Numbered from the stretch's first letter, positions 18,788-40,103 are shown. The stretch is DNA of 64,000 bases from Bacteroidales bacterium (GCA_030654075.1 JAURYB010000078.1:12918-76917); one strand, 5' to 3'. The notes: generated by a model from the sequence alone, not told the origin. Numbers and translations: made by a program.

Positions 18788-18891
18788 TAGTGCATAGTGC
18801 TTTGTGCGTAGCAGCTTTGGAAATGGTTAGGCATATTTGAAGTTGTTAACTTTTTTATTTCTGGTCACAATGCACTAAGCACAGAGCACAA
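18788..18891. repeat. Inverted heptamer arrays
   Basis: Left TAGTGCA TAGTGCT TTGTGCG TAG; right CACAATG CACTAAG CACAGAG CACAA. Confidence 0.75.
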
Positions 18892-18927
18892 TTCCTTCCC
18901 ATTTTAACACAAACAAAAAAAACAGGC

Positions 18928-18964
18928 AAAAAAATCCTGCCTCAGATTGTATCCAAAGGCAGGA
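18928..18964 (-). terminator. Intrinsic terminator of exuT
   Basis: TCCTGCCT / AGGCAGGA stem followed by a T-tract on the minus strand. Confidence 0.6.
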
Positions 18965-18993
18965 GTAATTGTTTATAATTCAGGACTATATTG

Positions 18994-20289
18994 CTAAATT
19001 GATTTTCCTGTCGGTTTAAGGTCATCGCCCAGTGGATTCATAGTTGGCATCATCCAATGAACTATCCCGAGAATAATCAGATACAGCGTTCCAGCAATCA
19101 GGAATGCATAGAAATAGCCTTCTTTGCCCTGGGCATCAAGAATAGATCCTAAGCTGAAATCAGCTAAGATTCCTGCAACAGCTCCAACCATACCACCGAT
19201 TCCTACCACCGATGCGGTTGCTTTCTTCGGGAAAATATCGCTTACAAAAGTAAATACGTTGGCTGACCATGCCTGGTGTCCGGCAGCAGCTAATCCAATC
19301 AGAATAATTGCAATCCATTGATTATCTGTTTTTGTAGCAAAGGAAACCGGAAGAATAATAACTCCACAGAGCAGCATTGTTATTTTTCGGGAGAAGTTTA
19401 TACTCCTGCCACTTTTTATTAAAGCAGAAGAGAGGTATCCGCCGAAAACACTTCCCAGGTCGGCAAGAACATAAATTACAAGCAGCGGCAAGGCCAAAGT
19501 CTTGATGTTTATGCCAAACTGATCAAACAGGAATTTTCCGCCCCAGAATAAATAAAACCACCAAACAGCATCAAGAATTTTTGTAAGGCTGAATACCCAG
19601 GTTTGCTTTAATGGAAGTACTTTTATCCACGGGATTTTTTCTGTTGTCTCAGGCTCAGAATCGCTTAGAATGTGTTCAAGTTCTTTTTTGGATAATTTCG
19701 GATTGTCTTCAGGCTTCTTGTAGATTTTCAGCCACATAAAAAGCCATATTCCGGATAAAACCCCCGTAATGAGAAACGGATATCTCCATCCATCACCATT
19801 TTCGGCAACTACCAGCATAACCACTATTGGAGCCAGTATTGCACCTACACTGGTAGCGGCATTAAAAATTCCGGTTGCAAAGGCACGTTCTTTTTTAGGG
19901 AACCATTCAGCAACAGTTTTAATACTTGCCGGAAAGTTTCCAGATTCACCAAAACCAAGTCCGAACCGGGCAAGGATAAATCCTGGTAAAGCAAAACTTT
20001 TAGCGATGGTAGCATGCAACATTCCAAAAATACTCCATATTAAAATAGAGAGAGAGAATCCCTTTTTTGTGCCTAGCCGGTCGACAAGGCTGCCCATTAT
20101 AAGCAACCCGACAGCATAAGCTGCTTTAAAGGACATGTTAACCAAAGCATAATCTTTGTTAGTCCAGCTAAATAATTCCATCAGTTTAGGAGCCATAACC
20201 CCTAATAAGCTCCTGTCGAAATAGTTAATGGTTAACGCGAAGAAAAGCATTGCTAAAATCCGCCAGCGGTAATTCCCTGTTTTGCTCAT
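18994..20289 (-). CDS. exuT: MFS hexuronate transporter (ExuT-like)
   Basis: YRWRIL..INYFDR, GESGNFPASIKTVAEWFPKKERAFATGIFN, AAAGHQAWSAN. Confidence 0.85.
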   Translation of the reverse strand: MSKTGNYRWRILAMLFFALTINYFDRSLLGVMAPKLMELFSWTNKDYALVNMSFKAAYAVGLLIMGSLVDRLGTKKGFSLSILIWSIFGMLHATIAKSFALPGFILARFGLGFGESGNFPASIKTVAEWFPKKERAFATGIFNAATSVGAILAPIVVMLVVAENGDGWRYPFLITGVLSGIWLFMWLKIYKKPEDNPKLSKKELEHILSDSEPETTEKIPWIKVLPLKQTWVFSLTKILDAVWWFYLFWGGKFLFDQFGINIKTLALPLLVIYVLADLGSVFGGYLSSALIKSGRSINFSRKITMLLCGVIILPVSFATKTDNQWIAIILIGLAAAGHQAWSANVFTFVSDIFPKKATASVVGIGGMVGAVAGILADFSLGSILDAQGKEGYFYAFLIAGTLYLIILGIVHWMMPTMNPLGDDLKPTGKSI

Positions 20290-20370
20290 AGTTTATTGGA
20301 TAAAAATATTTTATATGCCTTGCGAAAAGTTATTATTGGTTTCGGTATTTGAGAAATCAGGAATTATCTA

Positions 20371-21894
20371 TCAGTTAATCAGCATTTTTTTAACAGACAA
20401 AGCCCCGTTTTGCGAATATACACGAATAATATAGATGCCTTTAGGCCAGTTGTTTGCCTGAATATTTAGCCTACTTGCTGAAATATGACGCGAATATATT
20501 TTTACTCCTGTTATCTGGAATACCTCTACAAAACTAACTAAACCCTGGATAATAATTTCCTTGCTTCCGGGATAATATTTCATTGAAATATCCGAAAGAT
20601 CTGCCGAAGCTAATGGTAGTGAAGTGAAGAAACCGTATTCAAATGGGCCCAAATCGGGAGCTGAACCGCTAAAAGGCAAAGCTACATCAGTTCCTTTATC
20701 AATAAGTCCGGAGTTTTCTATCAGGCGGAAAAGGCCACCCATATATGGCAATGAACCGTCAGCATTTCGGGCTACTTTGCTGCTATCAACCGCTACACTC
20801 TCGAAATCAGCTATTGAAACGGGAATACCGTTCCATGTATTGGTTTGAGAAGCAGTGCCTGGCCCAAATGAATTACCACCTGAAAAAAGCGAGATATTAT
20901 TGGCAAAAGTATTTGCTCCCCGTGCATCTCTGTTATTCGGGAAACTATATCCTATGCCGTCGTTATACGAAATACAGTTGTAGCAGAATACTCGTCCAAC
21001 ACCGTTATTTTGGTCAAAACCTTTCTTGCTTGTACTCAATATTTTGTGCCCGATAGAAATGCAGCGAATCAATGTTGCACCGCCGGGAGAAGAAAGCCCA
21101 CCCACTTTAAAACCATTTCCATTTCCCAGGTTATTGATTACACCGGTAGTTCCACCGGGATAATCAGTTACATCATACGACTTTTGCCCGTTTGTCATCA
21201 CCCAGCAATCTTCGAAGTAGATGTCGTTTTGTGTTTCATAACAGTCATATCCGTCATCTGAGTTATTCCACGAACGACAACGGATAAATTTATTACCGAC
21301 CCCGACTGTAAGTTTACATGAGAAACCATCCGCATTGCCGCCTGCGTTACTTGTTTTATAGTCAAAGTTTTCGTAGGAATCACAGTCGATTACTTCATTA
21401 TAAGCTCCGGTTCCGCCAGTGATTTGCAATCCCCCATCACAGTTTTTATAGAAGCGGCAATTCTGAATCTTGTTGTGTGAGCTTTTTATATGCATACCGT
21501 TGTCGCCGGCACATGTGATATCCAATCCATAAACATAGTAATAATCCTGTGAAACCTGTATTCCCCGCTCACCGGAAGAATTTGTTCCCGAATATCCCCG
21601 GTTATAGAAATCCAGAACAGGGCGCTCATCACCGGGATAAGCAAAAATGGATAAATATTCTGTTGCAGTTCCGCCCTTGCTTAAACTTATCTGAGCATTC
21701 AACATATAGTGACCACCCCTTATATACACTGTATCTCCGGCTATAGCTATGGAAATAGCTGTTGGTATGTCATAAGGAGAATCCAATGTGCCTGTTCCGG
21801 CTGATGTGCCGTTTACAGCTGCAATGTAGTTTTTGGCTGAGACTGAAGTAAATCCAAGGACAACTATAATCAGAAGGAGTAAATTTTTATTCAT
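20371..21894 (-). CDS. PL9-like pectate lyase with T9SS C-terminal domain
   Basis: AGDTVYIRGG, GGNADGF, NNSDDGYD, GNGNGFKVGG, KGFDQN, APDLGPFE; CTD PKGIYIIRV. Confidence 0.85.
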   Translation of the reverse strand: MNKNLLLLIIVVLGFTSVSAKNYIAAVNGTSAGTGTLDSPYDIPTAISIAIAGDTVYIRGGHYMLNAQISLSKGGTATEYLSIFAYPGDERPVLDFYNRGYSGTNSSGERGIQVSQDYYYVYGLDITCAGDNGMHIKSSHNKIQNCRFYKNCDGGLQITGGTGAYNEVIDCDSYENFDYKTSNAGGNADGFSCKLTVGVGNKFIRCRSWNNSDDGYDCYETQNDIYFEDCWVMTNGQKSYDVTDYPGGTTGVINNLGNGNGFKVGGLSSPGGATLIRCISIGHKILSTSKKGFDQNNGVGRVFCYNCISYNDGIGYSFPNNRDARGANTFANNISLFSGGNSFGPGTASQTNTWNGIPVSIADFESVAVDSSKVARNADGSLPYMGGLFRLIENSGLIDKGTDVALPFSGSAPDLGPFEYGFFTSLPLASADLSDISMKYYPGSKEIIIQGLVSFVEVFQITGVKIYSRHISASRLNIQANNWPKGIYIIRVYSQNGALSVKKMLIN

Positions 21895-22300
21895 ACTATT
21901 CGTTAAGAATTACTAATAGGTAAAACCAAACTGTTTGTCAAATTTAATGAATAAATACTTGTTTAGTGGCAGTTACACAAATACTGGTAACTATTTCCCA
22001 ATAATTCCACATATTTCCTGGATAGCAAAAAATAAAGTCAGATCAGCGTGATAAGTGTGGTTGAATGCACTGCAAATTGACTGTTTTGATCTGTCAGATT
22101 TTATTTAAAAATAGAAGTCTTTTCTGTGTTAACCGGATTGCCTTTTTATGAATAAGTGAAATTGTACTTGTATGTTTTCCAAATTCAGTATCCTTTCTTA
22201 GCATTCGATAAATTGCGCTAAGCTTTTTGGATTTTCCCATTCTTTATGCTCTTCATTCTTCATAATCAGTTCTACACCTATCAGGTATGGCTTCTTGTTC

Positions 22301-22334
22301 AAAAAAAAGAAACCGGATTAGATAACCCGGTTTC
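22301..22334 (-). terminator. Intrinsic terminator
   Basis: GAAACCGG / CCGGTTTC stem plus T8 on the minus strand. A second 10-bp hairpin AGTGCTTTGC / GCAAAGCACT lies at 22370-22394. Confidence 0.6.
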
Positions 22335-22409
22335 CATTTTAAAAATAAGCTTTTGATTTTTAAGAAAATAGTGCTTTGCATGCAGCAAAGCACTCAGACA
22401 TTAAAGATT

Positions 22410-23258: not shown

Positions 23259-23768
23259 GATGATTAATTTTAATTGTGGATAAAAAAATTAGAATTATGA
23301 CTGCAAGATTACATAAAAAATGATTTTTTTAAACTCAGCAGCATTTCAACAGCTGGTGTAGTCAGCCTGTTTTTGGTGTAGAAAAGAGCTGGGAGAGACA
23401 GATTATTTTACGGATTGTAATTGACGAAACCATTGAATTTATTAGCGTTCAATGAATTTATAATAGGATAGAAAATATAAATAACTTAGTATAGTTTCAT
23501 TTTATGGGATCATTTTTCCCCCAATAAGTCCACAACTTTCACCAATTTTTCTAACAAGAAAATTTATTGAAAAAATCTACCCTGAAACCGCATGAGAATG
23601 CAGTTTGACTGTGGCATGTTTTACCTATTCCGAACAGAGAATCCCCAAAAATATATTTGGATATCTCCCAAAATCAAGAGTGCTTTTTTTGAAAAAATTA
23701 GTGCAATCTGAATTTTTTGTTCTTATTGGATTTAGTCTAAAACTTAAATAGTCGTAAATCTTGAATCT

Positions 23769-24287: not shown

Positions 24288-24420
24288 GGAAATGTTACTT
24301 ATTTAGAAGTGTTAAAAGCAAATCTTTATTTGATTTTATAACAGGTGACAGTGGCTGGAAATTTCACCCGGGTGTATTTATTAAGCAGCAAATTTAAGGA
24401 GTTTTTTGGCATAAAAAAAT

Positions 24421-24486
24421 AAATTCCGTTAACGTTAACGGAATTTCAAAAAATGTGTATATCTTTGCCGTGTGCGTTAACGGGAA
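24421..24486. promoter_or_regulatory. Palindromic operator pair bracketing a -7 promoter element
   Basis: Perfect 26-bp palindrome AAATTCCGTTAACGTTAACGGAATTT (24421-24446); TATCTTTG (24460-24467); second site CCGTGTGCGTTAACGG (24468-24483). Confidence 0.8.
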
Positions 24487-25626: not shown

Positions 25627-26469
25627 ATGATTTTCGATTTTTCAGACCTGAAAGGAAAAGTAGCTGTAATTACCGGTGGTGCCGGAGTTATAGGTTATTC
25701 GATTTGTGAAGCCATGGCTTCAGCTGGCATTAGAACAGCCATTATTGATATTAATAAAGAGGCTGCGGATAATACGGCTAAAATGCTCTCCGAAAAGTTT
25801 AACGTTGATTGCATCGGGGTCGAAGCCAATGTACTCGACAAGCAATCGCTGATCAACGCCAAGAAAGTAATTAACGAAAAGCTTGGGACTATTGACATTC
25901 TTATTAACGGCGCTGGCGGTAATTCGCCCAAAGCAACCACCCAGGTTGAACAGCTTACCGATATTAATGATCTCGAAAAATCATTCTTTGGCCTCGAAAT
26001 GGATGGTTTTGATAAAGTTTTTGCCCTGAATTTCAACGGTACTTTGCTTCCAAGTATGGTGTTCGCTACCGATATGTTGCAGAAAGAAAAAGGTGTAATC
26101 CTGAATATTTCTTCGATGAATTCTTTCAAGCCCTTGACAAAAATCCCTGCATATTCGGCAGCCAAAGCATCGGTTAATAACTTTACACAATGGCTGGCAG
26201 TTCACCTCGCTAAAACCGGGATTCGCGTTAACGCTGTAGCTCCGGGGTTTTTCCTCACCAACCAGAATCGTTTTTTGCTTACCGATGAAAAAACCGGTGA
26301 TATGACGCCTCGGGGATTAAAAATTATTTCAAATACTCCTGTCGGGAAATATGGAAAACCTGAGGATCTGCAAGGTGCTACACTTTTCCTGCTCTCCGAC
26401 CTTTCGGGATTTATCACTGGCATAATACTTCCTGTCGATGGTGGTTACAGTGCTTTCGGAGGGGTGTAG
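25627..26469 (+). CDS. uxuB: SDR, D-mannonate oxidoreductase (fructuronate reductase)-like
   Basis: TGGAGVIG, NGAGGNSPKATT, PLTKIPAYSAAK, APGFFLTNQNR, VDGGYSAFGGV, typical of the UxuB SDR subfamily. Confidence 0.8.
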   Translation: MIFDFSDLKGKVAVITGGAGVIGYSICEAMASAGIRTAIIDINKEAADNTAKMLSEKFNVDCIGVEANVLDKQSLINAKKVINEKLGTIDILINGAGGNSPKATTQVEQLTDINDLEKSFFGLEMDGFDKVFALNFNGTLLPSMVFATDMLQKEKGVILNISSMNSFKPLTKIPAYSAAKASVNNFTQWLAVHLAKTGIRVNAVAPGFFLTNQNRFLLTDEKTGDMTPRGLKIISNTPVGKYGKPEDLQGATLFLLSDLSGFITGIILPVDGGYSAFGGV

Positions 26470-26521
26470 AAATTTAAGATAACACTTATTTGCTTTATTG
26501 AAAGGAATTGGGTTTTAGTAG

Positions 26522-26684
26522 GCCAGAAGTCGGAAGTCAGAAGACGGAAGAAATTGCTGATTTGAGATTTTCCCCTGCGAATTGAAAATAAGTTGAAGAA
26601 ATGTTATTGGCTAAAGAAGATTCACTCACAATGATAAATGAAGTATTCAGGGTAACTTCTGACTTCCGACTTCCGTCTTCCGGC
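26522..26684. repeat. Inverted heptamer arrays
   Basis: Left CCAGAAG TCGGAAG TCAGAAG ACGGAAG; right CTTCTGA CTTCCGA CTTCCGT CTTCCGG. Confidence 0.85.
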
Positions 26685-26752
26685 ATTTTAAACTGTTACA
26701 CTAAATTAACAATAGATCCATCATAATTACACCAAATCAACATCACAACATC

Positions 26753-27832
26753 ATGGGTATTCAACTTAAAAAAGACTTTTCCTGGTCGCTACTGGTTCCT
26801 ACCAGTATGGGAGTTCGTATAACACCGATAAACGGGCAGCCTGTTCACAGCAGCGACACCTTTAAAATGCAGGCCACCAGCGCCGAAACCAACGTTGCCA
26901 GTATTTCATCCTATCTTGGGCTTCCTGTAAAAGTATTGACTACTTTCGTGAAGGATAGTCCGATTGCACAGCTAATTAAGAGCAATCTAGCCAGCCGTCG
27001 TATGGCTTACGAAGGAAAAGACGTTCCACAAGGTGATCCATGGGGCTACCGCCACCAGTTTAATATTGCCGATAGCGGCTTTGGTTCACGAGGTCCGCGG
27101 GTGCAGAATGACCGGGCCGGTGAGGTTGGACGAACTTTGAATGTTAATGATTTTGACCTGGATCGCATCTTTGTGAAAGAAGGTGTTCAGATTATGCATC
27201 TTTCAGGACTTATTGCAGCCTTATCGCCCGAAACCAGCACTTTTTGTCTTGAGCTGGCCCGTGCTGCAAAGAAAACCGGTACACGAATCTCTTTTGATCT
27301 GAATTACCGTGCTTCATTCTGGAAAGGCCGCGATAAAGAATTACATGATATCTTTACCGAAATAGCTTCAGTATCTGATATCCTGGTTGGCAACGAAGAA
27401 GATTTTCAACTCTGCCTGGGCATTGAAGGACCTGAAGCCGGAGGAAAAGATATTGATTCCAAAATTGAGAGCTTTAAAATAATGATCCAGCGGGTGAAAC
27501 TAGCTTTCCCGAATGCTTCGGTGTTTGCTACAACTCTGCGACAGGTGATCAATACCAACAAACACCTTTGGGGTTCTATCATGCTTGAAGGAGACAACTG
27601 GAATGTGATTGAACCACGCGAAATTAACGTGCTCGATCGGATTGGTGGAGGAGATGGGTTTGTGGGTGGATTACTTTACGGAATTCTGAAAGGATGGGAA
27701 CCCGAAAAATGCATGCAATTTGGATGGGCAAGCGGCGCTTTGGCAACTACCTTTTTGACTGATTATGCACAGCCTGCTGACGAAGAAATGGTTTGGAGCG
27801 TATGGCAGGGAAATGCCAGGGTCAAAAGATAA
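26753..27832 (+). CDS. PfkB-family sugar-acid kinase (divergent KdgK-like)
   Basis: SAETNVA (canonical GGEANVA), SFDLNYRASFW, GNEED, DRIGGGDGFVGG. Confidence 0.85.
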   Translation: MGIQLKKDFSWSLLVPTSMGVRITPINGQPVHSSDTFKMQATSAETNVASISSYLGLPVKVLTTFVKDSPIAQLIKSNLASRRMAYEGKDVPQGDPWGYRHQFNIADSGFGSRGPRVQNDRAGEVGRTLNVNDFDLDRIFVKEGVQIMHLSGLIAALSPETSTFCLELARAAKKTGTRISFDLNYRASFWKGRDKELHDIFTEIASVSDILVGNEEDFQLCLGIEGPEAGGKDIDSKIESFKIMIQRVKLAFPNASVFATTLRQVINTNKHLWGSIMLEGDNWNVIEPREINVLDRIGGGDGFVGGLLYGILKGWEPEKCMQFGWASGALATTFLTDYAQPADEEMVWSVWQGNARVKR

Positions 27833-28131
27833 GGCACAAGGGCCAAATTCCAAGATTCAAATTCCAAGTTATAACATGGACAAGACAGAATTAAAAAGTA
27901 ATGAAAAACACATAACAATAAATAAATAATGAAAAAGTAAGGGGGAACAATCAATACTTTTACGTTTTGTGTTATGTGTTTAATGTTTTTAATTTCTTAC
28001 TTAAATAAGATGTAAAAACCATTAAGTTAAAAAATGGCTATCAAAAAAATTAATTTAAAAGTCTTTGAATTTGTACTTGTCGTTGGCCACCACTTGGATC
28101 TTGGTTCTTGGAATTTGGGACTTGGGTCTTA
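27830..28131. repeat. Inverted heptamer arrays with a nested inner inverted repeat
   Basis: Left TAAG GCACAAG GGCCAAA TTCCAAG ATTCAAA TTCCAAG; right CTTGGAT CTTGGTT CTTGGAA TTTGGGA CTTGGGT CTTA; inner AAACACATAACA / TGTTATGTGTTT. Confidence 0.8.
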
Positions 28132-28170
28132 ACAATGAGTACTTATCATAACATCATTTAGAATACCACC

Positions 28171-29460
28171 ATGATCTATTACAACCACGGTTCAGTTGAT
28201 ACTGAATTGAGTCTTGCGGAACTCAGAAAAGGACTTTATGAAGCTTTGGACAAGTTAGGCCCGAAGCAGAAAGTCCTGATAGTGCCTCCTGATTTCACGC
28301 GATTCCATTCACAGGCAGGCATACTGACCGAAATGGCGTGGGAATATTATGGCGAAGCTGTTACGGATATTCTCCCAGCGCTTGGCACACATGTTGCCAT
28401 GTCGGAAACCGAACTGAATACTATGTTTGGTAAAGTTCCGCATTCACTTTTCCGGATTCATAACTGGAGAACTGATATTGTTACCCTTGGCATTGTACCG
28501 GCTGAATTTGTCAGCCAGGTTTCGGAGAACCAGGTAGATTTTTCATGGCCGGCACAGGTAAACAAACTGTTAGTTGAAGGAAACTTTGATCTTATTCTTT
28601 CAATCGGTCAGGTGGTTCCGCACGAAGTAATCGGAATGGCTAATTACAATAAAAATATATTTGTTGGAACAGGTGGCAAAGAAGGTATAAACAAAAGCCA
28701 TTTCCTCGGAGCAGCTTATGGAATGGAACGAATTATGGGACGTGCGGATAACCCGGTCAGGAAGGTACTCAATTATGCTTCGGAGCATTTTGCTGTTCAT
28801 CTTCCGATTGTTTACACGCACACCGTAATAGCGCGTGCTGCCGGTGGTGACATGGCTATAAAAGGGCTGTTTGTCGGCAACGACAGTGAATGCTTTAATA
28901 AAGCTGCTGAATTATCACTAAAAGTAAACTTCGAACTGCTGGACGAACCGCTAACAAAAGTTGTAGTCTTCCTCGATCCATCAGAGTTTAAAAGTACCTG
29001 GTTAGGAAATAAAAGCATTTACCGTACACGCATGGCACTGGCTAATGACGGGGAACTGATAGTTCTTGCTCCCGGGCTGAAGGAATTTGGCGAGGACAAG
29101 GAAATTGACCGACTGATCCGTAAATACGGCTATCTCACCACTCCCGAAATTCTTGAACTAGTTAAAAATAATCCCGAACTTCGCGAAAACCTGAGTGCCG
29201 CCGCTCATCTTATTCATGGCTCACACGAAAACAGGTTCAAAGTAACGTATTGTCCCGGAAAACTTACCCGCGAAGAAATTGAAAGTGTAAATTTCAGCTA
29301 TGGCAATCTGGATGAAATGATGAAAAAATATGATCCGACTAAACTGAAAGATGGATTTAATGTGGTAGATGGAGAGGAAATATTCTTTATTTCCAATCCG
29401 GCGCTTGGCTTGTGGGCATGGAAAAACCGTTTTTCAGTGTCTGCACACCCAACTCGTTAA
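28171..29460 (+). CDS. Lactate racemase (LarA/DUF2088) superfamily protein, candidate mannonate/gluconate 2-epimerase
   Basis: PPDFTR, ALGTH, HNW, VVPHEVIGMANYNK motifs; lies between uxuB/kinase and gnd. Confidence 0.75.
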   Translation: MIYYNHGSVDTELSLAELRKGLYEALDKLGPKQKVLIVPPDFTRFHSQAGILTEMAWEYYGEAVTDILPALGTHVAMSETELNTMFGKVPHSLFRIHNWRTDIVTLGIVPAEFVSQVSENQVDFSWPAQVNKLLVEGNFDLILSIGQVVPHEVIGMANYNKNIFVGTGGKEGINKSHFLGAAYGMERIMGRADNPVRKVLNYASEHFAVHLPIVYTHTVIARAAGGDMAIKGLFVGNDSECFNKAAELSLKVNFELLDEPLTKVVVFLDPSEFKSTWLGNKSIYRTRMALANDGELIVLAPGLKEFGEDKEIDRLIRKYGYLTTPEILELVKNNPELRENLSAAAHLIHGSHENRFKVTYCPGKLTREEIESVNFSYGNLDEMMKKYDPTKLKDGFNVVDGEEIFFISNPALGLWAWKNRFSVSAHPTR

Positions 29461-29539
29461 AGTGTCTGTACACCTGAAAGGTGTCTGACACTAATTCAAC
29501 TCATTCGAGTGTCAGACACCCGTTGGGTGTGCAGACACT
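29436..29539. repeat. REP/BIME-like cluster of imperfect palindromes
   Basis: AGTGTCTGCACACCCAAC (29436-53), AGTGTCTGTACACCTGAAAGGTGTCTGACACT (29461-92), AGTGTCAGACACCCGTTGGGTGTGCAGACACT (29508-39). Confidence 0.85.
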
Positions 29540-29565
29540 AAATAAACCGAATAATTGCACATAAA

Positions 29566-30699
29566 TTGAACAGACCAAGAATTGTAGCCGACGATAAAAT
29601 CCCTTTCCTTAAAGGGGTGCTGGAGCCTTATGCAGATATTATTTATTTGCCGGGTAACCTGATAAACCGGGAATCCGTTTTGGATGCCGATGCTTTATTG
29701 ATACGTACGAGAACGAAGTGTAATGCAACATTACTTGAAGGTACGGCTGTTAAATTTATCGCTACTGCCACAATCGGTTACGATCATATTGATACTGAAT
29801 ATTGCAAATCAAAAAATATCACCTGGTTAAATGTTCCCGGCTGCAATTCGGCTTCGGTGCAGCAGTATATTACTGCGGCACTCGTAACTCTTGCATTTAA
29901 CAACGATTATGCTCTCAGCGATAAAACACTTGGAATTATCGGGGTAGGAAATGTCGGCTCTAAAGTTCAGAAAGCCGCAGTAATCCTGGGAATGAAAGTA
30001 AAACTTAACGATCCTCCCAGAGCACGTAAAGAAGGAAAAAGCTGTTTTGTTTCACTGGATGAAATCCTTGAAACATCCGACATCATTACAATTCACGTTC
30101 CTTTGAATAAGACAGGCCCGGATAAAACACTTCATCTTTTCGATACTGAATTATTAAGAAAAATGAAGAATGGTTCCTGGCTGATTAACTCTTCACGCGG
30201 TGAAGTGGTTGAAACTAATGCATTAAAAAGCGCGTTATCTTCAGGTAAACTGAGCGGTGCTATACTTGATGTTTGGGAGAATGAACCGGCTATAGACCTT
30301 GAACTCTTAAGCCAGGCTTATATTTCCACACCACATATTGCAGGATATTCAATTGATGGAAAGGCAAAAGGAACATCGCAGGTTGTACAGGCACTCAGTG
30401 CGTTTTTTGGCCTGCCTTTGCTTGATTTCTATCCACCGGTGCTTCCTGAGCCATTGCTTTCCGAAATTGTAATCGAAGGAGCCGGGAAATCATCGTTTGA
30501 AATTGTTCATGGAGCCGTGCTGCATACGTATCCCATCATGAAGGATCATATCCTTTTACAACGCTCACCCTCTACATTTGAGCAACAAAGAGGACAATAT
30601 CCTGTGCGTCGCGAATTTCCATCATACACCGTCAGACTTAGCAACGGAAAGCCAAAAGCGGTTGAAATGCTTCTTAAGCTTGGATTTAAAGTCAAATAA
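29566..30699 (+). CDS. pdxB: 4-phosphoerythronate dehydrogenase
   Basis: IVADDKIPF, IRTRT, ATATIGYDHID, PGCNS, GVGNVG, LDVWENEP, TPHIAGYS, FEQQRGQYPVRRE tail; TTG start. Confidence 0.9.
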   Translation: MNRPRIVADDKIPFLKGVLEPYADIIYLPGNLINRESVLDADALLIRTRTKCNATLLEGTAVKFIATATIGYDHIDTEYCKSKNITWLNVPGCNSASVQQYITAALVTLAFNNDYALSDKTLGIIGVGNVGSKVQKAAVILGMKVKLNDPPRARKEGKSCFVSLDEILETSDIITIHVPLNKTGPDKTLHLFDTELLRKMKNGSWLINSSRGEVVETNALKSALSSGKLSGAILDVWENEPAIDLELLSQAYISTPHIAGYSIDGKAKGTSQVVQALSAFFGLPLLDFYPPVLPEPLLSEIVIEGAGKSSFEIVHGAVLHTYPIMKDHILLQRSPSTFEQQRGQYPVRREFPSYTVRLSNGKPKAVEMLLKLGFKVK

Positions 30700-30734
30700 A
30701 AATACTACCTAAAAAATGAGGATAGAAACCAATT

Positions 30735-30945
30735 AGTACCTCAAGTTATAAGTGCCTAAAGTGCCTAAAGTTAATTACTGAACTGAGATTTAATGAAATA
30801 TTCTTTGGGCCAGTAAAAATTAAATGTGCCTGGATTTACTGTTTCTCAATAGTTATCGTAGTTCGTAGAAAAAGGTCTTTCCATCATAGAAAATTCATTT
30901 ACGTAAGTAGCGATAATTTTAGGCACTTTAGGCACTTTAAGTACT
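30735..30945. repeat. Inverted nonamer arrays
   Basis: Left (AAGTGCCTA)2 AAGTTA; right TAATTT (TAGGCACTT)2 TAAGTACT. Confidence 0.85.
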
Positions 30946-31017
30946 CTCAATAAATTTGATCATTATTAAGTTGAATAGATACAGGAAATTTAATACTCAA
31001 TTAATACAAACAAAAAC

Positions 31018-32472
31018 ATGAAAACATTAGCAGACATCGGATTGGTTGGACTTGCCGTAATGGGAGAGAACCTGGTATTGAATATGGAAAGCAAAGGCTT
31101 TACCGTGGCCGTTTTTAACCGCACAACCGACAAAGTGGATCACTTTATAAACGGACGGGGCAAAGGCAAAAATATTATTGGAACTCACTCCATCGAAGAA
31201 TTGGCTAAAAACCTGGAACGCCCCCGGAAAGTAATGTTAATGGTTAAAGCAGGCAAGGCTGTGGATGATTTCATCGAGTTGCTCTTACCATATTTAGAAC
31301 CAGGTGATATCATTATTGATGGTGGCAATACGCTTTTTACCGATACAGATCGCCGTACTAAATATGTTGAAAGTAAAGGACTTCTGTATATAGGAACCGG
31401 TGTTTCGGGTGGAGAAGAAGGAGCTTTGCTTGGCCCTTCAATTATGCCCGGAGGTTCAAAGGCTGCATGGCCTTTTGTAAAGCCAATTTTCCAGGCTATC
31501 TCTGCCAAAGTTGATAATGGAACACCTTGTTGTGACTGGGTTGGTGAGAACGGCGCCGGCCATTTTGTTAAAATGGTGCACAACGGTATTGAATACGGCG
31601 ATATGCAGCTGATTTGTGAGGCTTACCAGATTATGCGCGATCTGCTGGGAATGTCGGCCGATGAAATGCATACTGTTTTTACAGAATGGAACGAAACTGA
31701 ACTCGATAGTTACCTGATTGAAATAACCCGCGATATACTTGCAGTTAAAGATACAGATGGACAGCCGCTTATTGATAAAATTGTGGATACAGCCGGACAA
31801 AAAGGAACCGGCAAATGGACAGCCGTTACTGCTCTTGATTTAGGCATTCCGCTTACACTGATTGGTGAAGCTGTATTTTCACGCTGCTTATCGGCTATCA
31901 AGGATGAACGTGTTGCTGCTTCGAAAATTCTGTCAGGGCCGAAACCATCGTTTTCAGGCGATAAGGTTCAATTTATCGGGTATCTGAAACAGGCAGTGTA
32001 TGCTTCCAAAATAATATCGTACGCCCAGGGTTACAGCCTTATGCGCGCTGCTGCCGAAGAGAATAAATGGGATTTGAATTATGGCGGCATAGCCCTGATG
32101 TGGCGCGGCGGTTGTATTATCCGTTCCGTATTCCTCAACAAAATTAAGGATGCTTTCGATCTTAATCACGAATTAGCAAACCTCCTGCTCGATCCTTTCT
32201 TCACCGCAACCATTGAGAAATCGCAGAACGGCTGGCGCCAGGTGGTAGCTACCGCCCAGCTTAATGGAATTCCAATACCTACATTATCCACTGCCCTGAA
32301 CTATTACGACGGGTACCGGGCGGAATTCCTGCCTGCAAACCTGTTACAGGCGCAACGCGACTATTTCGGCGCACATACCTACGAACGATTCGACCAGCCC
32401 CGCGGAAAATTCTTCCACACCAACTGGACCGGGCGTGGAGGTGATACTTCGTCATCAACGTATAATGTGTAA
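31018..32472 (+). CDS. gnd: NADP-dependent 6-phosphogluconate dehydrogenase (decarboxylating)
   Basis: GLAVMG, NRT, GVSGGEEGA, KMVHNGIEYGDMQ, QKGTGKW, QAQRDYFGAH. Confidence 0.97.
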   Translation: MKTLADIGLVGLAVMGENLVLNMESKGFTVAVFNRTTDKVDHFINGRGKGKNIIGTHSIEELAKNLERPRKVMLMVKAGKAVDDFIELLLPYLEPGDIIIDGGNTLFTDTDRRTKYVESKGLLYIGTGVSGGEEGALLGPSIMPGGSKAAWPFVKPIFQAISAKVDNGTPCCDWVGENGAGHFVKMVHNGIEYGDMQLICEAYQIMRDLLGMSADEMHTVFTEWNETELDSYLIEITRDILAVKDTDGQPLIDKIVDTAGQKGTGKWTAVTALDLGIPLTLIGEAVFSRCLSAIKDERVAASKILSGPKPSFSGDKVQFIGYLKQAVYASKIISYAQGYSLMRAAAEENKWDLNYGGIALMWRGGCIIRSVFLNKIKDAFDLNHELANLLLDPFFTATIEKSQNGWRQVVATAQLNGIPIPTLSTALNYYDGYRAEFLPANLLQAQRDYFGAHTYERFDQPRGKFFHTNWTGRGGDTSSSTYNV

Positions 32473-35923: not shown

Positions 35924-35971
35924 GTTTAAATAGCATTAATACTATTATTATTCACTTGTAAAGAGAAACAT

Positions 35972-37333
35972 ATGAAAAAAAATCTGCTTATTTACTTGTT
36001 CGTTTTGTTATTCCTTCCTGCTTTTTCGCAAACAGAAAAAGGGTGGATGGATTTATTTAACAAAAAAAATCTCGATGGCTGGATACAAAAGGGGGGAGCC
36101 GCAAAGTACACCGTTGTAGATGGCGCAATAGTTGGCGAAACAGTTCCGGATTCTCCGAATTCATTCCTTTGCACAGAAAAAGAATACGGTGATTTTATCC
36201 TCGAATTGGAATTGCTGGTCGATACTTCGATGAATTCCGGCATACAATTCCGGAGCTTAAGCAAACCGGAGTACCGGAATGGCGTTGTTCATGGTTACCA
36301 GGTGGAAATAGATCCCTCCAAGCGCGCCTGGAGCGGTGGTATTTACGACGAACAGGTGCGGGGATGGCTGTATTCGCTGGAAATAAATCCGGAAGCAAAA
36401 CCTGCGTTTAAAAACGGGCAATGGAACAAATACCGCATCGAGGCCATCGGAAATACTATTAAAACCTGGGTGAATGATATTCCGACGGCTGATATTATTG
36501 ATAATGCAAGGGCAACGGGTTTTATTGCTCTGCAGGTTCATGCTATCAATGCCAAAGAAAAACCCTGGACGTTGGGCACCCAGGTTAAGTGGAAAAACAT
36601 CCGGATAATGACCCAGGATTTAGCCAAAAACCGGAAAAAGACAACAAAAGAAATTGTGCAGCTTAATTTTATTCCCAATACCATCTCGGATTATGAAAAA
36701 AAAAACGGCTGGAATCTCCTGTTTGATGGTGCATCAACAAAAGGATGGAGAGGCGTTTACAAGGGAAAATTTCCTGAAAAAGGCTGGGAGGTAAAAGAGG
36801 GGGAACTTATTGTACAAGCCTCTGCCGGCGCCGAATCAACCAATGGCGGCGATATCGTAACTATTGAGGAGTTTGCAGATTTTGAGCTGATTGCCGATTT
36901 TAAAATTACGGAAGGTGCAAACAGTGGCATAAAATATTATGTTACTGAAAAAGAGAACAATAAAGGGTCCGCTATTGGACTCGAATACCAGATTTTAGAC
37001 GATAAGAACCATCCTGATGCAAAATTAGGACGTGATGGAAACCGGACAGTTTCATCGCTTTACGATTTAATTACTGCCGGAAATAAAAGAGTGAATCCAA
37101 TCGGAGAATGGAACACGGCCCGTATCGTTTCTAAAAATAAGCATGTCGAACATTGGTTAAATGGCATGAAAGTGCTGGAATACGAACGGGGAAGCAAGGA
37201 ATTCCGCGACTTGGTGGCTGCAAGCAAATACAAGGACTGGCCGGATTTCGGCGAAGCGCCTAAAGGACGAATTCTGTTGCAGGATCATGGCAATAAAGTG
37301 TCTTTCAGAAGTATAAAAATCAGGAAATTGTAA
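35972..37333 (+). CDS. Tandem DUF1080 (3-keto-glycoside hydrolase/hydratase family) protein
   Basis: Two copies of the LF.G....GW / NSGI / YQ / WN..RI / G.I.LQ.H / F.NI.I pattern; signal peptide. Confidence 0.88.
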   Translation: MKKNLLIYLFVLLFLPAFSQTEKGWMDLFNKKNLDGWIQKGGAAKYTVVDGAIVGETVPDSPNSFLCTEKEYGDFILELELLVDTSMNSGIQFRSLSKPEYRNGVVHGYQVEIDPSKRAWSGGIYDEQVRGWLYSLEINPEAKPAFKNGQWNKYRIEAIGNTIKTWVNDIPTADIIDNARATGFIALQVHAINAKEKPWTLGTQVKWKNIRIMTQDLAKNRKKTTKEIVQLNFIPNTISDYEKKNGWNLLFDGASTKGWRGVYKGKFPEKGWEVKEGELIVQASAGAESTNGGDIVTIEEFADFELIADFKITEGANSGIKYYVTEKENNKGSAIGLEYQILDDKNHPDAKLGRDGNRTVSSLYDLITAGNKRVNPIGEWNTARIVSKNKHVEHWLNGMKVLEYERGSKEFRDLVAASKYKDWPDFGEAPKGRILLQDHGNKVSFRSIKIRKL

Positions 37334-37440
37334 ATATTCTTGTCTAACGATCTTGTGTAGAGAAAAGCATTTTATAGCAAAATGTTTCCCGTTTCTAAGT
37401 GGCTAAACTTTTATCGTTTTACAAACTAATTCATTACAAA

Positions 37441-38793
37441 ATGGAAAATTCAAGAAGAGATTTTATAAAAACAGTTGGAATTGGTTCAATAGGTCTTGCG
37501 ATTAGTGAAACAGTTTTGGGTTCGCCACTTTTCGGGAATCCAAACGGAGCCAATGATAAAATAAGAGTTGGTTTGATAGGTTTTTCGAACCGTGCCAAGG
37601 ATACACTCATACCTGCTTTTATGAGTGTTGCCGATGAGTTAAATTTCGAAATTGTAGCTGTTTCTGATTTATGGAGCCGCCGTCGGGAAGAAGCTGCTGC
37701 GTATTTTGAGAAAAATTATCAGAAAAAAATCATAACAACCCGCAACAACGAAGAGCTTTATGCGAAAAACATAGTAGACGCTGTAATTATCAGCACACCC
37801 GACTTTTCGCATGCGCTTCACACAATCGAAGCAATTAAAGCGGGCTGTGACGCTTATGTTGAAAAGCCATTTGCAGAAACCATGGAAGATGCCCGCCTGG
37901 TACTTGCAGCTGCTGAAAATTCAGGACGAATAATACAGATTGGCTCGCAACGCCGAAGCGGTAACAATTATATCGCTGCCAACGAATATATTAAATCAGG
38001 TAAGTTCGGTAAAATAACCATGGTCGAAATGTCGTGGAATGTCAATCAGCCCGGCCGATGGAGACTTCCTCAACTGATAAAGGATATTAAAAAAGAGGAT
38101 GTAGATTGGGATCGTTTTCTGATGAACCGCCCCAGGGTAGATTGGGATCCGCGTATTTACTGCGAATACCGCCTTTTCTGGCCATTCTCATCAGGTATTC
38201 CCGGTCAGTGGATGTCGCACCAGATCGATACCGTGCATTGGTTTACCGGTCTCTCCTATCCTAAAAGCGTAGTGGCCAACGGAGGTATTTACATGTGGAA
38301 CGACGGACGAAAAAATGCAGACACCATGACTGCGGTTTTTGAATATGGCAAAAAGAATGATCCATCGCAGGATTTCCAGGTAGTTTATACATCGCGGATG
38401 CATAATTCAGCAGGAGGTACACGGGAATTGTATTATTCCAATGGCGGAATGCTCAACCTCGATACCAATAAAATAACACCGGAAGGTGGCCTCAATAAAA
38501 ATATGGCTGATGCAATGGGAATGCAACCTTTCCTTTTACCGGAATTTGACTTGCCCTCGGTGAAAACGGTTACTGCGGCAAATACATCGGCCGATCCGAT
38601 GTCGGCAGCGCATGTCAGGAACTGGATGGAATGCATACGCAGCCGCAAAACACCGAATGCGCCTGTCGAAGCCGGGTATAATCATTCCATTGCTAACATT
38701 ATGACCACTGCCGCGCTTCATACCGGGCTTAAAGTAACTTTCGATGAAAATAAACAGGAAGTAATGGCTGGTGATAAGGTTTTTAAATACTAA
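37441..38793 (+). CDS. Tat-exported Gfo/Idh/MocA oxidoreductase
   Basis: SRRDFIK twin-arginine signal (ATG 37441), ISTPDFSH, YVEKP, QIGSQRRS, WMSHQID. Confidence 0.9.
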   Translation: MENSRRDFIKTVGIGSIGLAISETVLGSPLFGNPNGANDKIRVGLIGFSNRAKDTLIPAFMSVADELNFEIVAVSDLWSRRREEAAAYFEKNYQKKIITTRNNEELYAKNIVDAVIISTPDFSHALHTIEAIKAGCDAYVEKPFAETMEDARLVLAAAENSGRIIQIGSQRRSGNNYIAANEYIKSGKFGKITMVEMSWNVNQPGRWRLPQLIKDIKKEDVDWDRFLMNRPRVDWDPRIYCEYRLFWPFSSGIPGQWMSHQIDTVHWFTGLSYPKSVVANGGIYMWNDGRKNADTMTAVFEYGKKNDPSQDFQVVYTSRMHNSAGGTRELYYSNGGMLNLDTNKITPEGGLNKNMADAMGMQPFLLPEFDLPSVKTVTAANTSADPMSAAHVRNWMECIRSRKTPNAPVEAGYNHSIANIMTTAALHTGLKVTFDENKQEVMAGDKVFKY

Positions 38794-38816
38794 TCAGTTG
38801 AACTATTTCTATTACG

Positions 38817-39851
38817 ATGAAGAAAATTGTAACATTCGGAGAAATCATGCTGCGGTTGGCAACACCAGGCTACCAGCGCTTTTCGCAGGCAACAAGCCTG
38901 CAGGCAACTTTTGGAGGAGGCGAAGCCAATGTAGCCGTATCGCTTGCCAATTATGGTTTAAAGGCTGAGTTTATAAGCCGTTTGCCCAAAAACGATATAG
39001 CTCAGGCTTGCATCATGGATTTACACAAGCACGGTGTGAGTACTGAAAACATGGAATTTGGCGGAGAACGCATTGGTATCTATTTCCTCGAAACCGGCGC
39101 AGTTGCACGTCCAAGTAAAGTGGTATACGACCGGGCTAATTCAGCTATTTCCGAAATTAAACCCGGGATGGTAAACTGGGAAAGAGTGTTTGAAAATACA
39201 CAATGGTTTCACTGGACAGGTATAACACCCGCTTTATCGCAGAGCGCCGCTGATACGGTAAAAGAAGCAATAGAAGTTGCGAACCGCCTGGGAATTACCG
39301 TTTCAACAGATTTGAATTTTCGTAAAAATCTATGGAAATATGGTAAAACAGCCTCCGAAGTTATGCCTGGTCTTGTTTCCGGTTGCGATATTATTCTGGG
39401 TAATGAAGAGGATGCCGATATGGTGTTTGGAATAAAACCTGAAGGCGTAAATGTTACAAGCGGGCATGTTGATGCTGCTGCTTATCAATCTGTCTGTGAG
39501 CAGATGATGGCGCGCTTCCCCAGGGCAAAAAAGGTAATTGTAACCTTGCGTGGTTCAATCAATGCCAATCACAATACCTGGTCGGGAGTGTTATGGGACG
39601 GAATAAAACTTATGAAAGCTCCTGATTATGATATTACTCACATTGTTGATCGCGTTGGCGGAGGTGACAGTTTTATGGGCGGCTTGATTTATGGCTTGAT
39701 TTCATACCCCGGCGACGATCAGAAAGCTTTAAACTTTGCGGTTGCCGCATCTTGTCTGAAACACACCATTTATGGCGATTTTAACCTGGTAACAGTTGCT
39801 GAAGTGGAAAACCTGATGAAAGGTGATGGGTCGGGACGGGTTTCGCGTTAA
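38817..39851 (+). CDS. kdgK: 2-dehydro-3-deoxygluconokinase
   Basis: VTFGEIMLRL, FGGGEANVA, YDRANSA, GITPAL, DLNFRKNLW, DRVGGGDSF. Confidence 0.92.
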   Translation: MKKIVTFGEIMLRLATPGYQRFSQATSLQATFGGGEANVAVSLANYGLKAEFISRLPKNDIAQACIMDLHKHGVSTENMEFGGERIGIYFLETGAVARPSKVVYDRANSAISEIKPGMVNWERVFENTQWFHWTGITPALSQSAADTVKEAIEVANRLGITVSTDLNFRKNLWKYGKTASEVMPGLVSGCDIILGNEEDADMVFGIKPEGVNVTSGHVDAAAYQSVCEQMMARFPRAKKVIVTLRGSINANHNTWSGVLWDGIKLMKAPDYDITHIVDRVGGGDSFMGGLIYGLISYPGDDQKALNFAVAASCLKHTIYGDFNLVTVAEVENLMKGDGSGRVSR

Positions 39852-39940
39852 AACTTTCACAAAAGGTCAGTGCTGCCTGTTTAGTACAACCTTTTTGATT
39901 CATTTTTAGCCTCTTCAAAACGAAAGTATTTTGAAAAAAA

Positions 39941-40085
39941 AGAGGCTGTATTAAAAGTCATTTTACCGCAGAGTTGTGCAAAGATTGCGCAGAGTTATTA
40001 TCTTGTAAATTAATGCTTGGCGTTTCTTTGCGTTTTCCTTCAGCGGTTCTCTGAGGTATAATTTACTCCTTTTGATACAGTCTCT
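39941..40085. repeat. MITE-like element: 17-bp terminal inverted repeats around inverted CGCAGAG-type arrays
   Basis: AGAGGCTGTATTAAAAG / CTTTTGATACAGTCTCT (15/17 match); inside, ACCGCAGAG..TGCAAAG..CGCAGAG faces CTTGGCG..CTTTGCG..CTCTGAGGT. Confidence 0.7.
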
Positions 40086-40103
40086 TTCAAAACGGATAGT
40101 TAC

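Follow-up and report, generated by a model that had tools for sequence, protein, structure and literature searches.

The stretch of DNA studied here, 64,000 nucleotides from a Bacteroidales bacterium (the window, by which we mean this whole stretch), raises the question of what occupies five of its intergenic spacers. A preliminary description, made from the sequence alone, had seen one architecture in all five, short tandem arrays answered by their reverse complement across a core. It had read them as empty or decayed cassettes of a gene-carrying system that targets operon gaps, or else as long RNA stems dividing the mRNA into segments. The features concerned, none of which has a strand, are these:

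Site 1, 18786..18893, no strand: weak gene-less hairpin with TAGTGCA-type heptamer arms at 18786-18807 and 18872-18893.
Site 2, 26484..26722 (outer limits approximate), no strand: MITE-like element of ~240 nt with CGGAAGT-type arrays.
Site 3, 27843..28126, no strand: hairpin with TTCCAAG-type heptamer arms at 27843-27868 and 28093-28126 and a loop of ~224 nt.
Nested element, 27872..28007, no strand: second palindromic repeat inside the site 3 loop, with arms at 27896-27939 and 27955-27998.
REP-like cluster, 29430..29545, no strand: nested GTGTCTG(C/T)ACACC palindromes.
Site 4, 30749..30941, no strand: hairpin with AAGTGCCTA nonamer arms at 30749-30772 and 30916-30941 and a 143-nt core.
Site 5, 39939..40087, no strand: outer 19-nt inverted repeat (39939-39957 and 40069-40087) in a convergent gap.

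We confirmed that each of the five spacers holds a gene-less hairpin with arms built of a short unit in inverted arrays, though not equally clearly in all. In a chance test, 300 dinucleotide shuffles of each spacer were scored against its observed inverted-repeat score. No shuffle (0/300) matched sites 2, 3 or 4. Site 1, whose 22-nt arms are 77% complementary and lie in a convergent gap, was reached by 8/300 shuffles, and by 0/300 once arm periodicity was demanded too. Site 5 was reached by 2/300; its tandem character is weak, for the highest-scoring repeat there is the outer one, which is not periodic and inside which lie degenerate CGCAGAG-type arms (39966-39996 and 40026-40056). The proposed common architecture therefore stands for sites 2–4, is weaker at site 1, and extends to the barely periodic site 5 by way of homology.

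The modules are non-coding and 108–290 nt long, with hairpin loops of 64–224 nt, and sites 2 and 4 contain no open reading frame (ORF) longer than 36 amino acids. In sites 2–5 the complementary arms close the module arm-to-arm in a long stem, with RNA folding z scores from −2.6 to −7.1 (site 2, −2.6/−4.3; site 3, −7.1; site 4, −4.5; site 5, −6.4), and site 1 folds at −1.9. Three terminator-like sites were found between 26400 and 31100, none of them inside a module, and loops of this length do not fit an intrinsic terminator, in which a GC-rich stem has a short loop and a T run after it.

Sites 2 to 4 lie in a run of five sugar-acid genes (g1 to g5), encoding a mannonate oxidoreductase, a PfkB-type kinase, a LarA-type epimerase, PdxB and Gnd, in agreement with the names given before. 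All four consecutive gaps of this run are indeed occupied, as can be read directly, the one at 29430–29545 by an element of the REP-like class. We rejected this cluster as a tandem-repeat-armed module because its palindromes lack tandem arms and so form a different class. It folds with a z score of −9.5, its motif has 22 + 15 matches in the genome against 0 in a 2 Mb shuffle, and it is found at the same junction in three relatives (G014, G013 and G006).

Genome-wide, we counted 1082 strict short tandem arrays, compared with 97, 119 and 111 when the genome was shuffled locally three times, and 52 arrays with a reverse-complement partner within 3 kb, compared with 0, 0 and 0. One control, run on the real genome, spoke against so clean a picture: pairing with the reverse but non-complemented unit gave 59 pairs versus 82 for the reverse complement; we attribute the high reverse-only count to putatively mirror-symmetric units with many direct copies. 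Once collapsed, the pairs amount to ~59 hairpin modules that lack a gene, and these fall into at least 15 families by unit. Each cassette of the window does have a different unit, as first described, but every unit forms a family across the genome. Although 82% of the genome is ORF, 57 of the 59 modules lie between ORFs. Their neighbors are co-directional in 36 cases, divergent in 14 and convergent in 7, versus 2804, 501 and 519 for all gaps, which does not bear out a targeting of operon gaps; the modules are almost exclusively intergenic, whatever the orientation of their neighbors.

The window modules have kin elsewhere in this genome to differing degrees. Site 2 carries four 7-mers per side (26524-26551, CAGAAGT CGGAAGT CAGAAGA CGGAAGA; 26656-26683, the reverse complement) around a core of ~104 nt. 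Homology over 180–266 nt links it to at least 12 further genomic locations, and its core by itself matches three of these (on C50, C187 and C18). Alignment of this family reveals conserved ends, GTTCTAC through to GTAGAAC, at which the window copy is degenerate; at sites 1, 3 and 4 no terminal inverted repeat could be defined beyond the arrays. Site 4, with 24-nt arms that are 96% complementary, has one related place. Site 5 has two partial copies (on C22 and C184), and its left arm is closely like a module adjoining a GxxExxY gene (C183:3020-3367); through this homology we placed it in the family. A BLAST search of the genome found no second copy of site 1. The element nested in site 3 has 14 further matches in the genome and others in several congeners. 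That the spacers are unrelated AT-rich sequences alike by chance is a reading that can draw on the weakness of site 1 by itself and on the poor periodicity of site 5. It is refuted for sites 2–4 by the shuffles, and family-level homology at sites 2, 4 and 5 and the genome-wide excess of inverted pairs speak against it as well; we give it next to no credence.

The same units also flank genes. The genome holds 19 PF05635 (four-helix-bundle) genes and 8 GxxExxY (PF13366) genes. Flanks read by eye showed inverted arrays on both sides of 16 of the 19 PF05635 genes, as the preliminary description had stated for this family; one further gene has an array on the only side that its contig covers, and two have none. 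Nearly every arm-flanked PF05635 gene has a unit of its own, and several GxxExxY genes are flanked by repeat units too. The units of site 2, site 4, the nested element and site 5 recur beside genes, on C141, at the PF05635 gene C33:32718-33035, at the PF05635 gene C56:14818 and at the C183 locus, respectively; the last bears out, for this genome, what the preliminary description had said of CGCAGAG-type arrays and GxxExxY genes. In congeners, the TAGTGCA-type unit seen at site 1 makes up the arms of PF05635 cassettes (L041, L044 and L061; G003, G004 and G024). A gene-bearing counterpart, in this genome or a congener, thus exists for all five window units except TTCCAAG, which supports reading the spacers as kin of gene-carrying cassettes. 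Empty is an apt word for them, but decayed finds no support, as 49 gene-less modules contain no detectable remnant of either gene (best E values 1.0 and 2.2). We found no published description of this link between arrays and genes.

Alignment of the same junctions in relatives bore out the expected polymorphism: the modules, as inserted DNA, are present in some congeners and absent from others. The site 2 module fills g1|g2 in two of eight genomes, G000 (the genome of the window) and G014, where the spacer measures 283–290 nt; in the other six (G013, G005, G006, G015, G019 and G002) it measures 24–40 nt. In a contig from a metagenome, 39 other letters link position 26468 to position 26753. At g4|g5 only G000 has the AAGTGCCTA module, in a spacer of 318 nt, against 24–50 nt in five relatives. 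The TTCCAAG module at g2|g3 is found in four of eight genomes (G000, G014, G013 and G005), and none of the three orthologues of site 3 contains the nested element. The reverse case also occurs: a whole TAGTGC cassette of ~800 nt is present in five congeners where G000 has a spacer of ~10 nt. Once inserted, modules pass on vertically. The gene-bearing cassettes that we traced occupy orthologous loci across the genus, and movement must therefore be rare.

After insertion the arms keep their complementarity, while the loop diverges and may take in further elements. Between G000 and G014, site 2 is 97% identical in the left arm, 85% in the right arm, 76% in the core and 58% in the left outer flank. 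The four orthologues of site 3 all fold arm-to-arm (z from −4.7 to −7.3) around loops that cannot be aligned, whereas array-less spacers used for comparison gave z scores of −1.7 to 0.4. No homology is detectable between the core sequences of the AAGTGCCTA modules, whether the two copies without a gene or the cassette on C33. In G025, a hairpin with another unit stands at the same g2|g3 junction, which could mean that hairpins arise locally or that selection favors one at this place.

These last observations bear on a different account, in which slipped-strand duplication at pre-existing hairpins built the arrays in place, with no transposition, and selection keeps them as mRNA stabilizers, insulators or attenuators between cistrons, much like REP/BIME. 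Conserved arms around unconserved loops, the independent hairpin of G025 and the frequency of same-unit copies with unalignable cores are what it would lead one to expect. It can also point to the lack of visible target duplications at the window modules, where relatives' empty-site spacers have diverged too far for a duplication to be read. But local evolution does not readily explain how one unit comes to be scattered over tens of unlinked sites (the CGGAAGT group has 96 arrays), how site 2 comes to have core and flanking sequence in common with other copies, or how entire modules appear at once where relatives have 24–50 nt. The modules also contain no terminator-like site, and their stems are as stable in the antisense as in the sense direction (19 versus 18; Wilcoxon p = 0.45). 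Given this equality, nothing shows selection at the RNA level.

A sister family with a 9-mer unit, CACAGATT, weighs against purely local origin too. It comprises 38 inverted-repeat pairs, 105–274 nt apart. A 14-nt terminal inverted repeat was present in 12 of 18 copies examined, and all 12 of these have an 8-bp direct repeat, with 7–8 of 8 positions matching compared with a control mean of 2.85. The family is a genuine MITE, and its target duplications measure 8 bp. Taking both sides together, we consider local evolution quite improbable. As for a mobilizer, neither an autonomous element nor a transposase was found in this assembly for any of the families. Nowhere in it do two ends of the 9-mer MITE enclose a long ORF, and the gene-bearing relatives carry PF05635 or PF13366 with no known transposase. 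The genome has 17 matches to Y1 (RAYT-type) transposases; six intact RAYT-type genes are flanked by palindromes other than those of the REP-like cluster.

The window spacers thus probably hold miniature, gene-less versions of small palindromic insertion elements, which form a superfamily with gene-bearing relatives. Each element would have two arms, arrays of a 7–11-nt unit specific to its family and inverted relative to each other. Full-size members would add a single small gene, which lies between the two arms or adjoins a complete hairpin module, its product being a PF05635 four-helix bundle (‘23S rRNA IVS protein’, Avd-like) or a PF13366 GxxExxY nuclease-like protein. The hallmarks of the sister family suggest that such elements spread by occasional transposition in trans. 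Within a transcription unit, the 20–45-bp stem might form in the mRNA and be cut or block decay. By analogy with the rRNA intervening sequence, RNase III, whose gene is present in this genome, may cut at the stem, and the host operon would in this way tolerate the insert. The small proteins are candidate readers of their own repeat units. What we propose for the function of modules and proteins is inferred only.

REP sequences are single short GC-rich palindromes whose hairpins, in operon gaps, protect upstream mRNA, and cyanobacterial STRRs are intergenic tandem heptamers described mainly as direct arrays. The window modules resemble REP/BIME and STRR in being short, abundant, intergenic and foldable, but they differ from REP in being arrays and from STRR in that the arrays are inverted.

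According to one report, the 23S rRNA of Coxiella burnetii has an intervening sequence (IVS) that contains a PF05635-type (S23p) ORF and tandem GACAGAT heptamers in the region of the 5′ arm, and RNase III cuts within its stem (PMC4990558). Like such ORF-bearing insertions, the modules are small inserts closed by complementary arms, and their sister cassettes carry PF05635 genes; unlike them, they are gene-less and situated between protein-coding genes. We rejected 23S IVS as an identity for the window modules, since all five lie between protein-coding genes and none carries a PF05635 ORF. The 23S genes of G005 and G014 are uninterrupted, as the whole model matched over 2888–2895 nt; that of G000 is not assembled.

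In Xanthomonas, GGGAATC heptamer arrays are described, in the text available to us, as intergenic, occurring in close inverted pairs (70 in Xcc, 75 in Xac), having stem-loop potential, and conserved in place between related species with a variable repeat number; that text treats the single G-rich unit as a quadruplex former and links it to no S23p gene (PMC4692102). Set against that account, at least 15 unrelated and mostly A+T-rich units coexist here, each linked to a small gene of its own. Bacterial MITEs offer a further comparison: BrickBuilt of Porphyromonas gingivalis is a MITE that contains a tandem repeat, as its description has it (PMC4596501). The modules are likewise small, multi-copy, intergenic and non-coding with inverted ends, and the 9-mer sister family adds target duplications. 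By the same description, BrickBuilt has a single internal minisatellite, where here two inverted short-unit arrays define the element. The modules differ in two further respects, as no parent insertion sequence was found here and the hallmarks of transposition come from the sister family, not from the window's five modules.

A further reading, which overlaps with that of miniature insertion elements and does not exclude it, holds that the four-helix-bundle paralogues bind DNA or RNA, each at its own unit, and that gene-less arrays and hairpins are binding sites kept or amplified in trans, as cassette satellites or a regulon. There is nearly one gene per unit family: the 15 genes with clear periodic arms represent 14 distinct families, whereas abundance-weighted draws gave a mean of 10.1 (P(≥14) = 0.0066), with families assigned by eye and a rough simulation. 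The three highest TAGTGC array counts (126, 55 and 53) all occur in genomes with a TAGTGC-clade gene, and the 7 holders of such a gene differ from the 19 non-holders (one-sided Mann-Whitney p = 0.037, a value that overstates the case because kin are not independent). The protein family includes bAvd-like members (PF22296 match), and a solved relative, 2rld, is pentameric, with 5 chains. However, at the threshold used, TAGTGC arrays occur without a clade gene in G016 (25) and G000 (4 strict-pattern matches), G011 holds a clade gene and has 0 arrays, and the concordance of clade and unit is explained by orthology of loci. We regard this network as unlikely. The more specific proposal of at least 15 orthogonal protein–repeat pairs, in which each PF05635 or GxxExxY paralogue would read its own 7–11-nt unit and maintain, amplify or process gene-less copies in trans, is possible but doubtful. 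If true, it would amount to an addressing system for nucleic acids, modular and selfish in origin, and would account for the orphan family PF05635 as well as for the excess of heptamer repeats that has long been noted in bacteria.

Some bacterial genomes are strangely rich in short tandem repeats, heptamers among them, and PF05635 and GxxExxY are large families for which we know of no role beyond diversity-generating retroelements. Here repeats and proteins are connected at scale, with many unit families, about one small gene for each, and dozens of gene-less hairpins, some of them within housekeeping operons that they do not disrupt. In annotation, such spacers should be flagged as repeat elements, neither promoters nor terminators. 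Should the stems undergo processing in RNA, the elements would influence how operons are expressed and how mRNA decays in uncultured Bacteroidales; should each protein read its own unit, the proteins would constitute a natural set of orthogonal sequence readers.

The arms of all five spacers were read directly, and the layout of array, core and inverted array claimed for them in the preliminary description was borne out. The features lie as follows in the window, which spans 12918-76917 of contig C54 in a draft genome (G000) of 5.77 Mb and 40% G+C:

18786-18807 / 18872-18893: site 1, arms of TAGTGCA-type heptamers
26524-26551 / 26656-26683: site 2, uxuB-pfkB gap, four CGGAAGT-type heptamers per side
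27843-27868 / 28093-28126: site 3, pfkB-larA gap, TTCCAAG-type heptamers
29430-29545: larA-pdxB gap, REP-like cluster of nested GTGTCTG(C/T)ACACC palindromes
30749-30772 / 30916-30941: site 4, pdxB-gnd gap, AAGTGCCTA nonamers
39966-39996 / 40026-40056: site 5, degenerate CGCAGAG-type arms enclosed by a 19-nt outer inverted repeat

Each spacer was compared with 300 dinucleotide shuffles of itself, counting those that reached the observed inverted-repeat score. For sites 2, 3 and 4 this happened in 0/300 shuffles each. The score of site 1 was reached in 8/300, and in 0/300 once arm periodicity was also demanded; that of site 5 was reached in 2/300, its best repeat being the outer, non-periodic one. 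The modules of the window, meaning gene-less hairpins of array, core and inverted array, are real and far above chance. Sites 2 to 4 lie in an operon encoding a D-mannonate oxidoreductase, a PfkB-type kinase, a LarA-type hexonate epimerase, PdxB and Gnd. All four gaps of this operon are occupied, as claimed, that between larA and pdxB by the REP-like class, which lacks tandem-repeat arms. The REP-like motif had 22 + 15 matches genome-wide versus 0 in a 2 Mb shuffle, the relatives G014, G013 and G006 have its palindromes at this junction too, and no cognate RAYT was identified for those of the window. Across the whole window no Rfam family reached gathering score, the sole trace being a chance-level miRNA match (E = 0.23) at the REP-like cluster. 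No terminator-like sites were found inside modules.

The inverted architecture also stood out in G000 as a whole. Under strict criteria 1082 tandem arrays with a period of 5-12 were counted, where three locally shuffled versions gave 97, 119 and 111, and a reverse-complement partner lay ≤3 kb away for 52 of the strict arrays versus 0, 0 and 0. Under a laxer definition, 82 reverse-complement pairs scored at least 12. Neither the reverse-only nor the complement-only control run on the real genome was clean, reverse-only pairing giving 59 pairs versus these 82. A possible source of the high reverse-only count is units with mirror symmetry, of which many direct copies also exist. Merging reduced the 61 pairs whose core is ≤300 nt to 59 gene-less modules. 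Smaller unit families exist besides the six largest.

Largest unit families in G000, with arrays counted under the laxer definition
CGGAAGT group: 96
AGTGAAT group: 77
ACGATTT group: 76
CACAGATT 9-mer: 50
TTCCAAA group: 47
8-mer GGGACTNA group: 40

Genomes of the same genus retain synteny across the uxuB-to-gnd cluster, and at three of its junctions modules were present in some genomes and absent from others, as the earlier suggestion of a mobile system would have it. With its CGGAAGT module, the uxuB-pfkB spacer measures 283 nt in G000 and ~290 nt in G014; without it, 24-40 nt in G013, G005, G006, G015, G019 and G002. The TTCCAAG module occupies a pfkB-larA spacer of 338 nt in G000, 220 in G014, 200 in G013 and 177 in G005, and is lacking from G006 (57 nt), G019 (92 nt) and G002, which has unrelated sequence there. 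The AAGTGCCTA module was present in G000 only, in a pdxB-gnd spacer of 318 nt that measures 24-50 nt in G014, G013, G019, G002 and G025. Among metagenome contigs (four DNA runs, mixed organisms, ≥85% likeness), one is an empty uxuB-pfkB allele joining 26468 to 26753 through 39 other letters, and further joints skip from 30696/30709 to 31018. Synteny with G014, G013 and G005 is broken beyond ~23.7-32.5 kb, and sites 1 and 5 are therefore incomparable at their own junctions. PdxB (29566-30699) shares only 70-71% identity with the orthologues in G014 and G013, against 89-95% for its four neighbours; pdxB is missing from the cluster in G005 and G006.

Identity of site 2 between G000 and G014 falls from 97% (left arm) and 85% (right arm) to 76% in its core and 58% in its left outer flank. 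Arm-to-arm folding is seen in all four site-3 orthologues (z = -4.7 to -7.3), whose loops are unalignable, and the array-less spacers show no fold (z = -1.7, 0.4 and -0.4). What lengthens the site-3 loop in G000 is a copy of a different palindromic repeat nested at 27872-28007, with 14 further matches in G000 (for example C81:22778-22898, C161:12869-12991 and C85:5121-5252, C-numbers being contigs). This repeat is ~125-135 nt long with arms of AACACAT/ATGTGTT-type units, and its nesting in the site-3 loop was seen in G000 only. In G025, from another family of the same order, the kinase-epimerase spacer (locus L020) holds a hairpin with CCACATAG-type arms, unlike TTCCAAG (z = -6.3), which reflects either an independent hit at this junction or selection for a hairpin.

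Elsewhere in G000, at least 12 places share homology with site 2 over 180-266 nt, at 62-73% identity. The site-2 core alone matched contigs C50, C187 and C18 (E = 9e-7 to 9e-4; best of five shuffles 0.017), and in eight aligned copies conservation runs from GTTCTAC to GTAGAAC. A rule of "same arms, unrelated cores" had come from stringent core-only BLAST and fails for site 2 under sensitive search. It does apply to site 4, which has one diverged sister (C54:91581-91861), the two cores being without detectable homology. No other copies of site 1 were found in G000.

The CACAGATT 9-mer family is a true MITE. Its 14-nt ends (GTAACTAATCAGTC) were present in 12/18 copies examined, and outside these ends an 8-bp direct repeat was found in 12/12 (six at 8/8, six at 7/8; control mean 2.85). 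G000 contains 38 GTAACTAATCAGTC end pairs 105-274 nt apart, with no long ORF between any of them and no autonomous copy in the assembly. The element is ~184 nt long (C111:15476, C123:13187, C191:10201 and ~35 more), and inside it lie inverted CACAGATT arrays, together with a small CTGCTTTCAGCAG hairpin that has a T run behind it. Y1-transposase (IS200/RAYT-type) matches numbered 17 in G000, about eleven of them broken or weak. The six intact genes (C168:2931, C93:13517, C81:7090, C59:4914, C123:23178 and C114:59) carry palindromes other than those of the array families, each having its own short GC-rich palindrome, tandemly repeated upstream. No link was found between the RAYT-type transposases of G000 and the array families.

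By crude ORF calls, 57/59 modules lie between ORFs. Of the gaps concerned, 36 are co-directional, 14 are divergent and 7 are convergent, versus 2804, 501 and 519 for all gaps; operon gaps are thus not preferred, contrary to the proposal that such elements target them. Among 37 co-directional cases, the sense strand folded better in 19 and the antisense strand in 18 (p = 0.45). By analogy with rRNA intervening sequences (IVSs), the stem in a transcript would be cut, and an RNase III gene was found in G000; a search for RNA runs covering 25627-32472 returned none. In the Coxiella IVS, RNase III cuts within the stem and tandem GACAGAT heptamers lie in the 5' region (PMC4990558).

The preliminary description had placed inverted heptamer arrays around four-helix-bundle genes and CGCAGAG-type arrays around GxxExxY genes, and both arrangements occur in this genome. 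G000 has 19 TIGR02436 and eight TIGR04256 matches, one of the eight broken; in the examples, the TIGR02436-type protein is PF05635 with a weaker bAvd-like match, and the TIGR04256-type is PF13366. The nearest solved relative of the C33 PF05635 protein is 2rld (five chains). When the printed flanks of all 19 PF05635 genes were read by eye, 16/19 had inverted arrays on both sides, the C141 gene had a CGGAAGA array on the single side that its contig covers, and no flanking arrays were seen at C82:49861 and C113:2396. Fourteen unit families occur among the 15 genes with clearly periodic arms, so that nearly every gene has its own unit; abundance-weighted random draws gave a mean of 10.1 families and P(≥14) = 0.0066, a rough value with families assigned by eye. 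The gene lies in the loop at C75, C192 and C104, between array and hairpin at C56:34801 and C196, and between two complete hairpin modules at C33:32480-33330 (L067). The two C33 modules (array, ~100-nt core, inverted array) repeat each other in direct orientation, and this extends to the core. GxxExxY genes at C9, C56:42574 and C196 are flanked by CACAGATT/CGCAGATT 9-mers, and that at C183 by a CTCTGCG/CGCAGAG hairpin, one arm closely resembling site 5. From the flanking units as read, the units of the window map to gene-bearing counterparts, TTCCAAG excepted, for which no such cassette was found among the 19 genes of G000 and 28 congener loci.

Gene-bearing counterparts of the window's units
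Site 1: PF05635 cassettes of congeners G003, G004 and G024
Site 2: C141
Site 4 (AAGTGCCTA): C33 PF05635 gene
Site 5: C183 GxxExxY gene
Element nested in site 3: C56:14818 PF05635 gene, flanked by the same arm type

PF05635 genes are co-oriented with the upstream neighbour in 16/18 cases and GxxExxY genes in 7/8 (background 73%), which fits read-through expression but is not significant alone.

PF05635 matches (4-23 per genome) occur in every one of the 26 genomes sampled from the genus, and in a tree of 47 PF05635 proteins the members of a clade had a unit in common. The clades checked correspond to orthologous loci, whose translated flanks share 70-96% identity, so this concordance reflects inheritance, and we rejected it as evidence of co-evolution. 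A TAGTGC cassette of ~800 nt sits exactly between two genes in G004, G024, G003, G008 and G012, and the orthologous site in G000 (C126 ~41556-41570) is a ~10-nt spacer without arrays; thus a whole cassette and its arms are either there together or missing together. Site 1 was considered as the emptied orthologue of this cassette and rejected, the true orthologous locus being the clean short spacer on C126. The gene downstream of that site has an in-frame run of GGGCGAA-type heptamers in G000 (C126 ~41790-41830), G024, G003 and G008, of GGATTTT-type in G012 and none in G004, a variable tandem array inside coding sequence (loci L061, L044, L037 and L045).

The notion of decayed cassettes was not upheld: a six-frame search with local profiles from G000's own PF05635 and GxxExxY proteins detected no remnant of either gene in 49 gene-less modules (best E 1.0 and 2.2). 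The gene-less modules are empty within detection limits. One idea is that the gene acts in trans, its presence being tied to array number. In a census of one unit across 26 genomes, the seven holders of a TAGTGC-clade gene (≥60% identity) had 126, 55, 53, 8, 6, 4 and 0 AGTGCNN x3 matches, more than non-holders by a one-sided Mann-Whitney test (p = 0.037) in which kin are not independent; yet the 19 non-holders had up to 25, and arrays clearly persist without the gene.

Among the closest described systems is the ORF-bearing 23S rRNA IVS, from which the modules of the window differ in location and cargo; the 23S genes of two congeners are uninterrupted. REP/BIME and STRR repeats are also among the closest described things. 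So too are the GGGAATC heptamers that Xanthomonas carries as convergent pairs (70 and 75; PMC4692102), MITEs such as BrickBuilt (PMC4596501), and the TAACTGA repeats of Beggiatoaceae, cyanobacteria and Bacteroidetes, which are almost all direct, not inverted (PMC4679880). Within literature coverage that excluded subscription journals, we found no paper tying PF05635 or GxxExxY genes to tandem-repeat arms and no description of gene-less forms of their cassettes. The analysis newly shows how many unit families coexist, that almost every gene goes with a unit of its own, how presence and absence vary from junction to junction, that one element is nested in another, and that one family bears MITE hallmarks; the negative findings as to decay, targeting of operons and bias between strands are likewise new. 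We infer the mechanism by which the modules would spread and any function they may have. The best reading of the modules is that they are IVS-like insertion elements with repeat arms, of which they represent the gene-less members.
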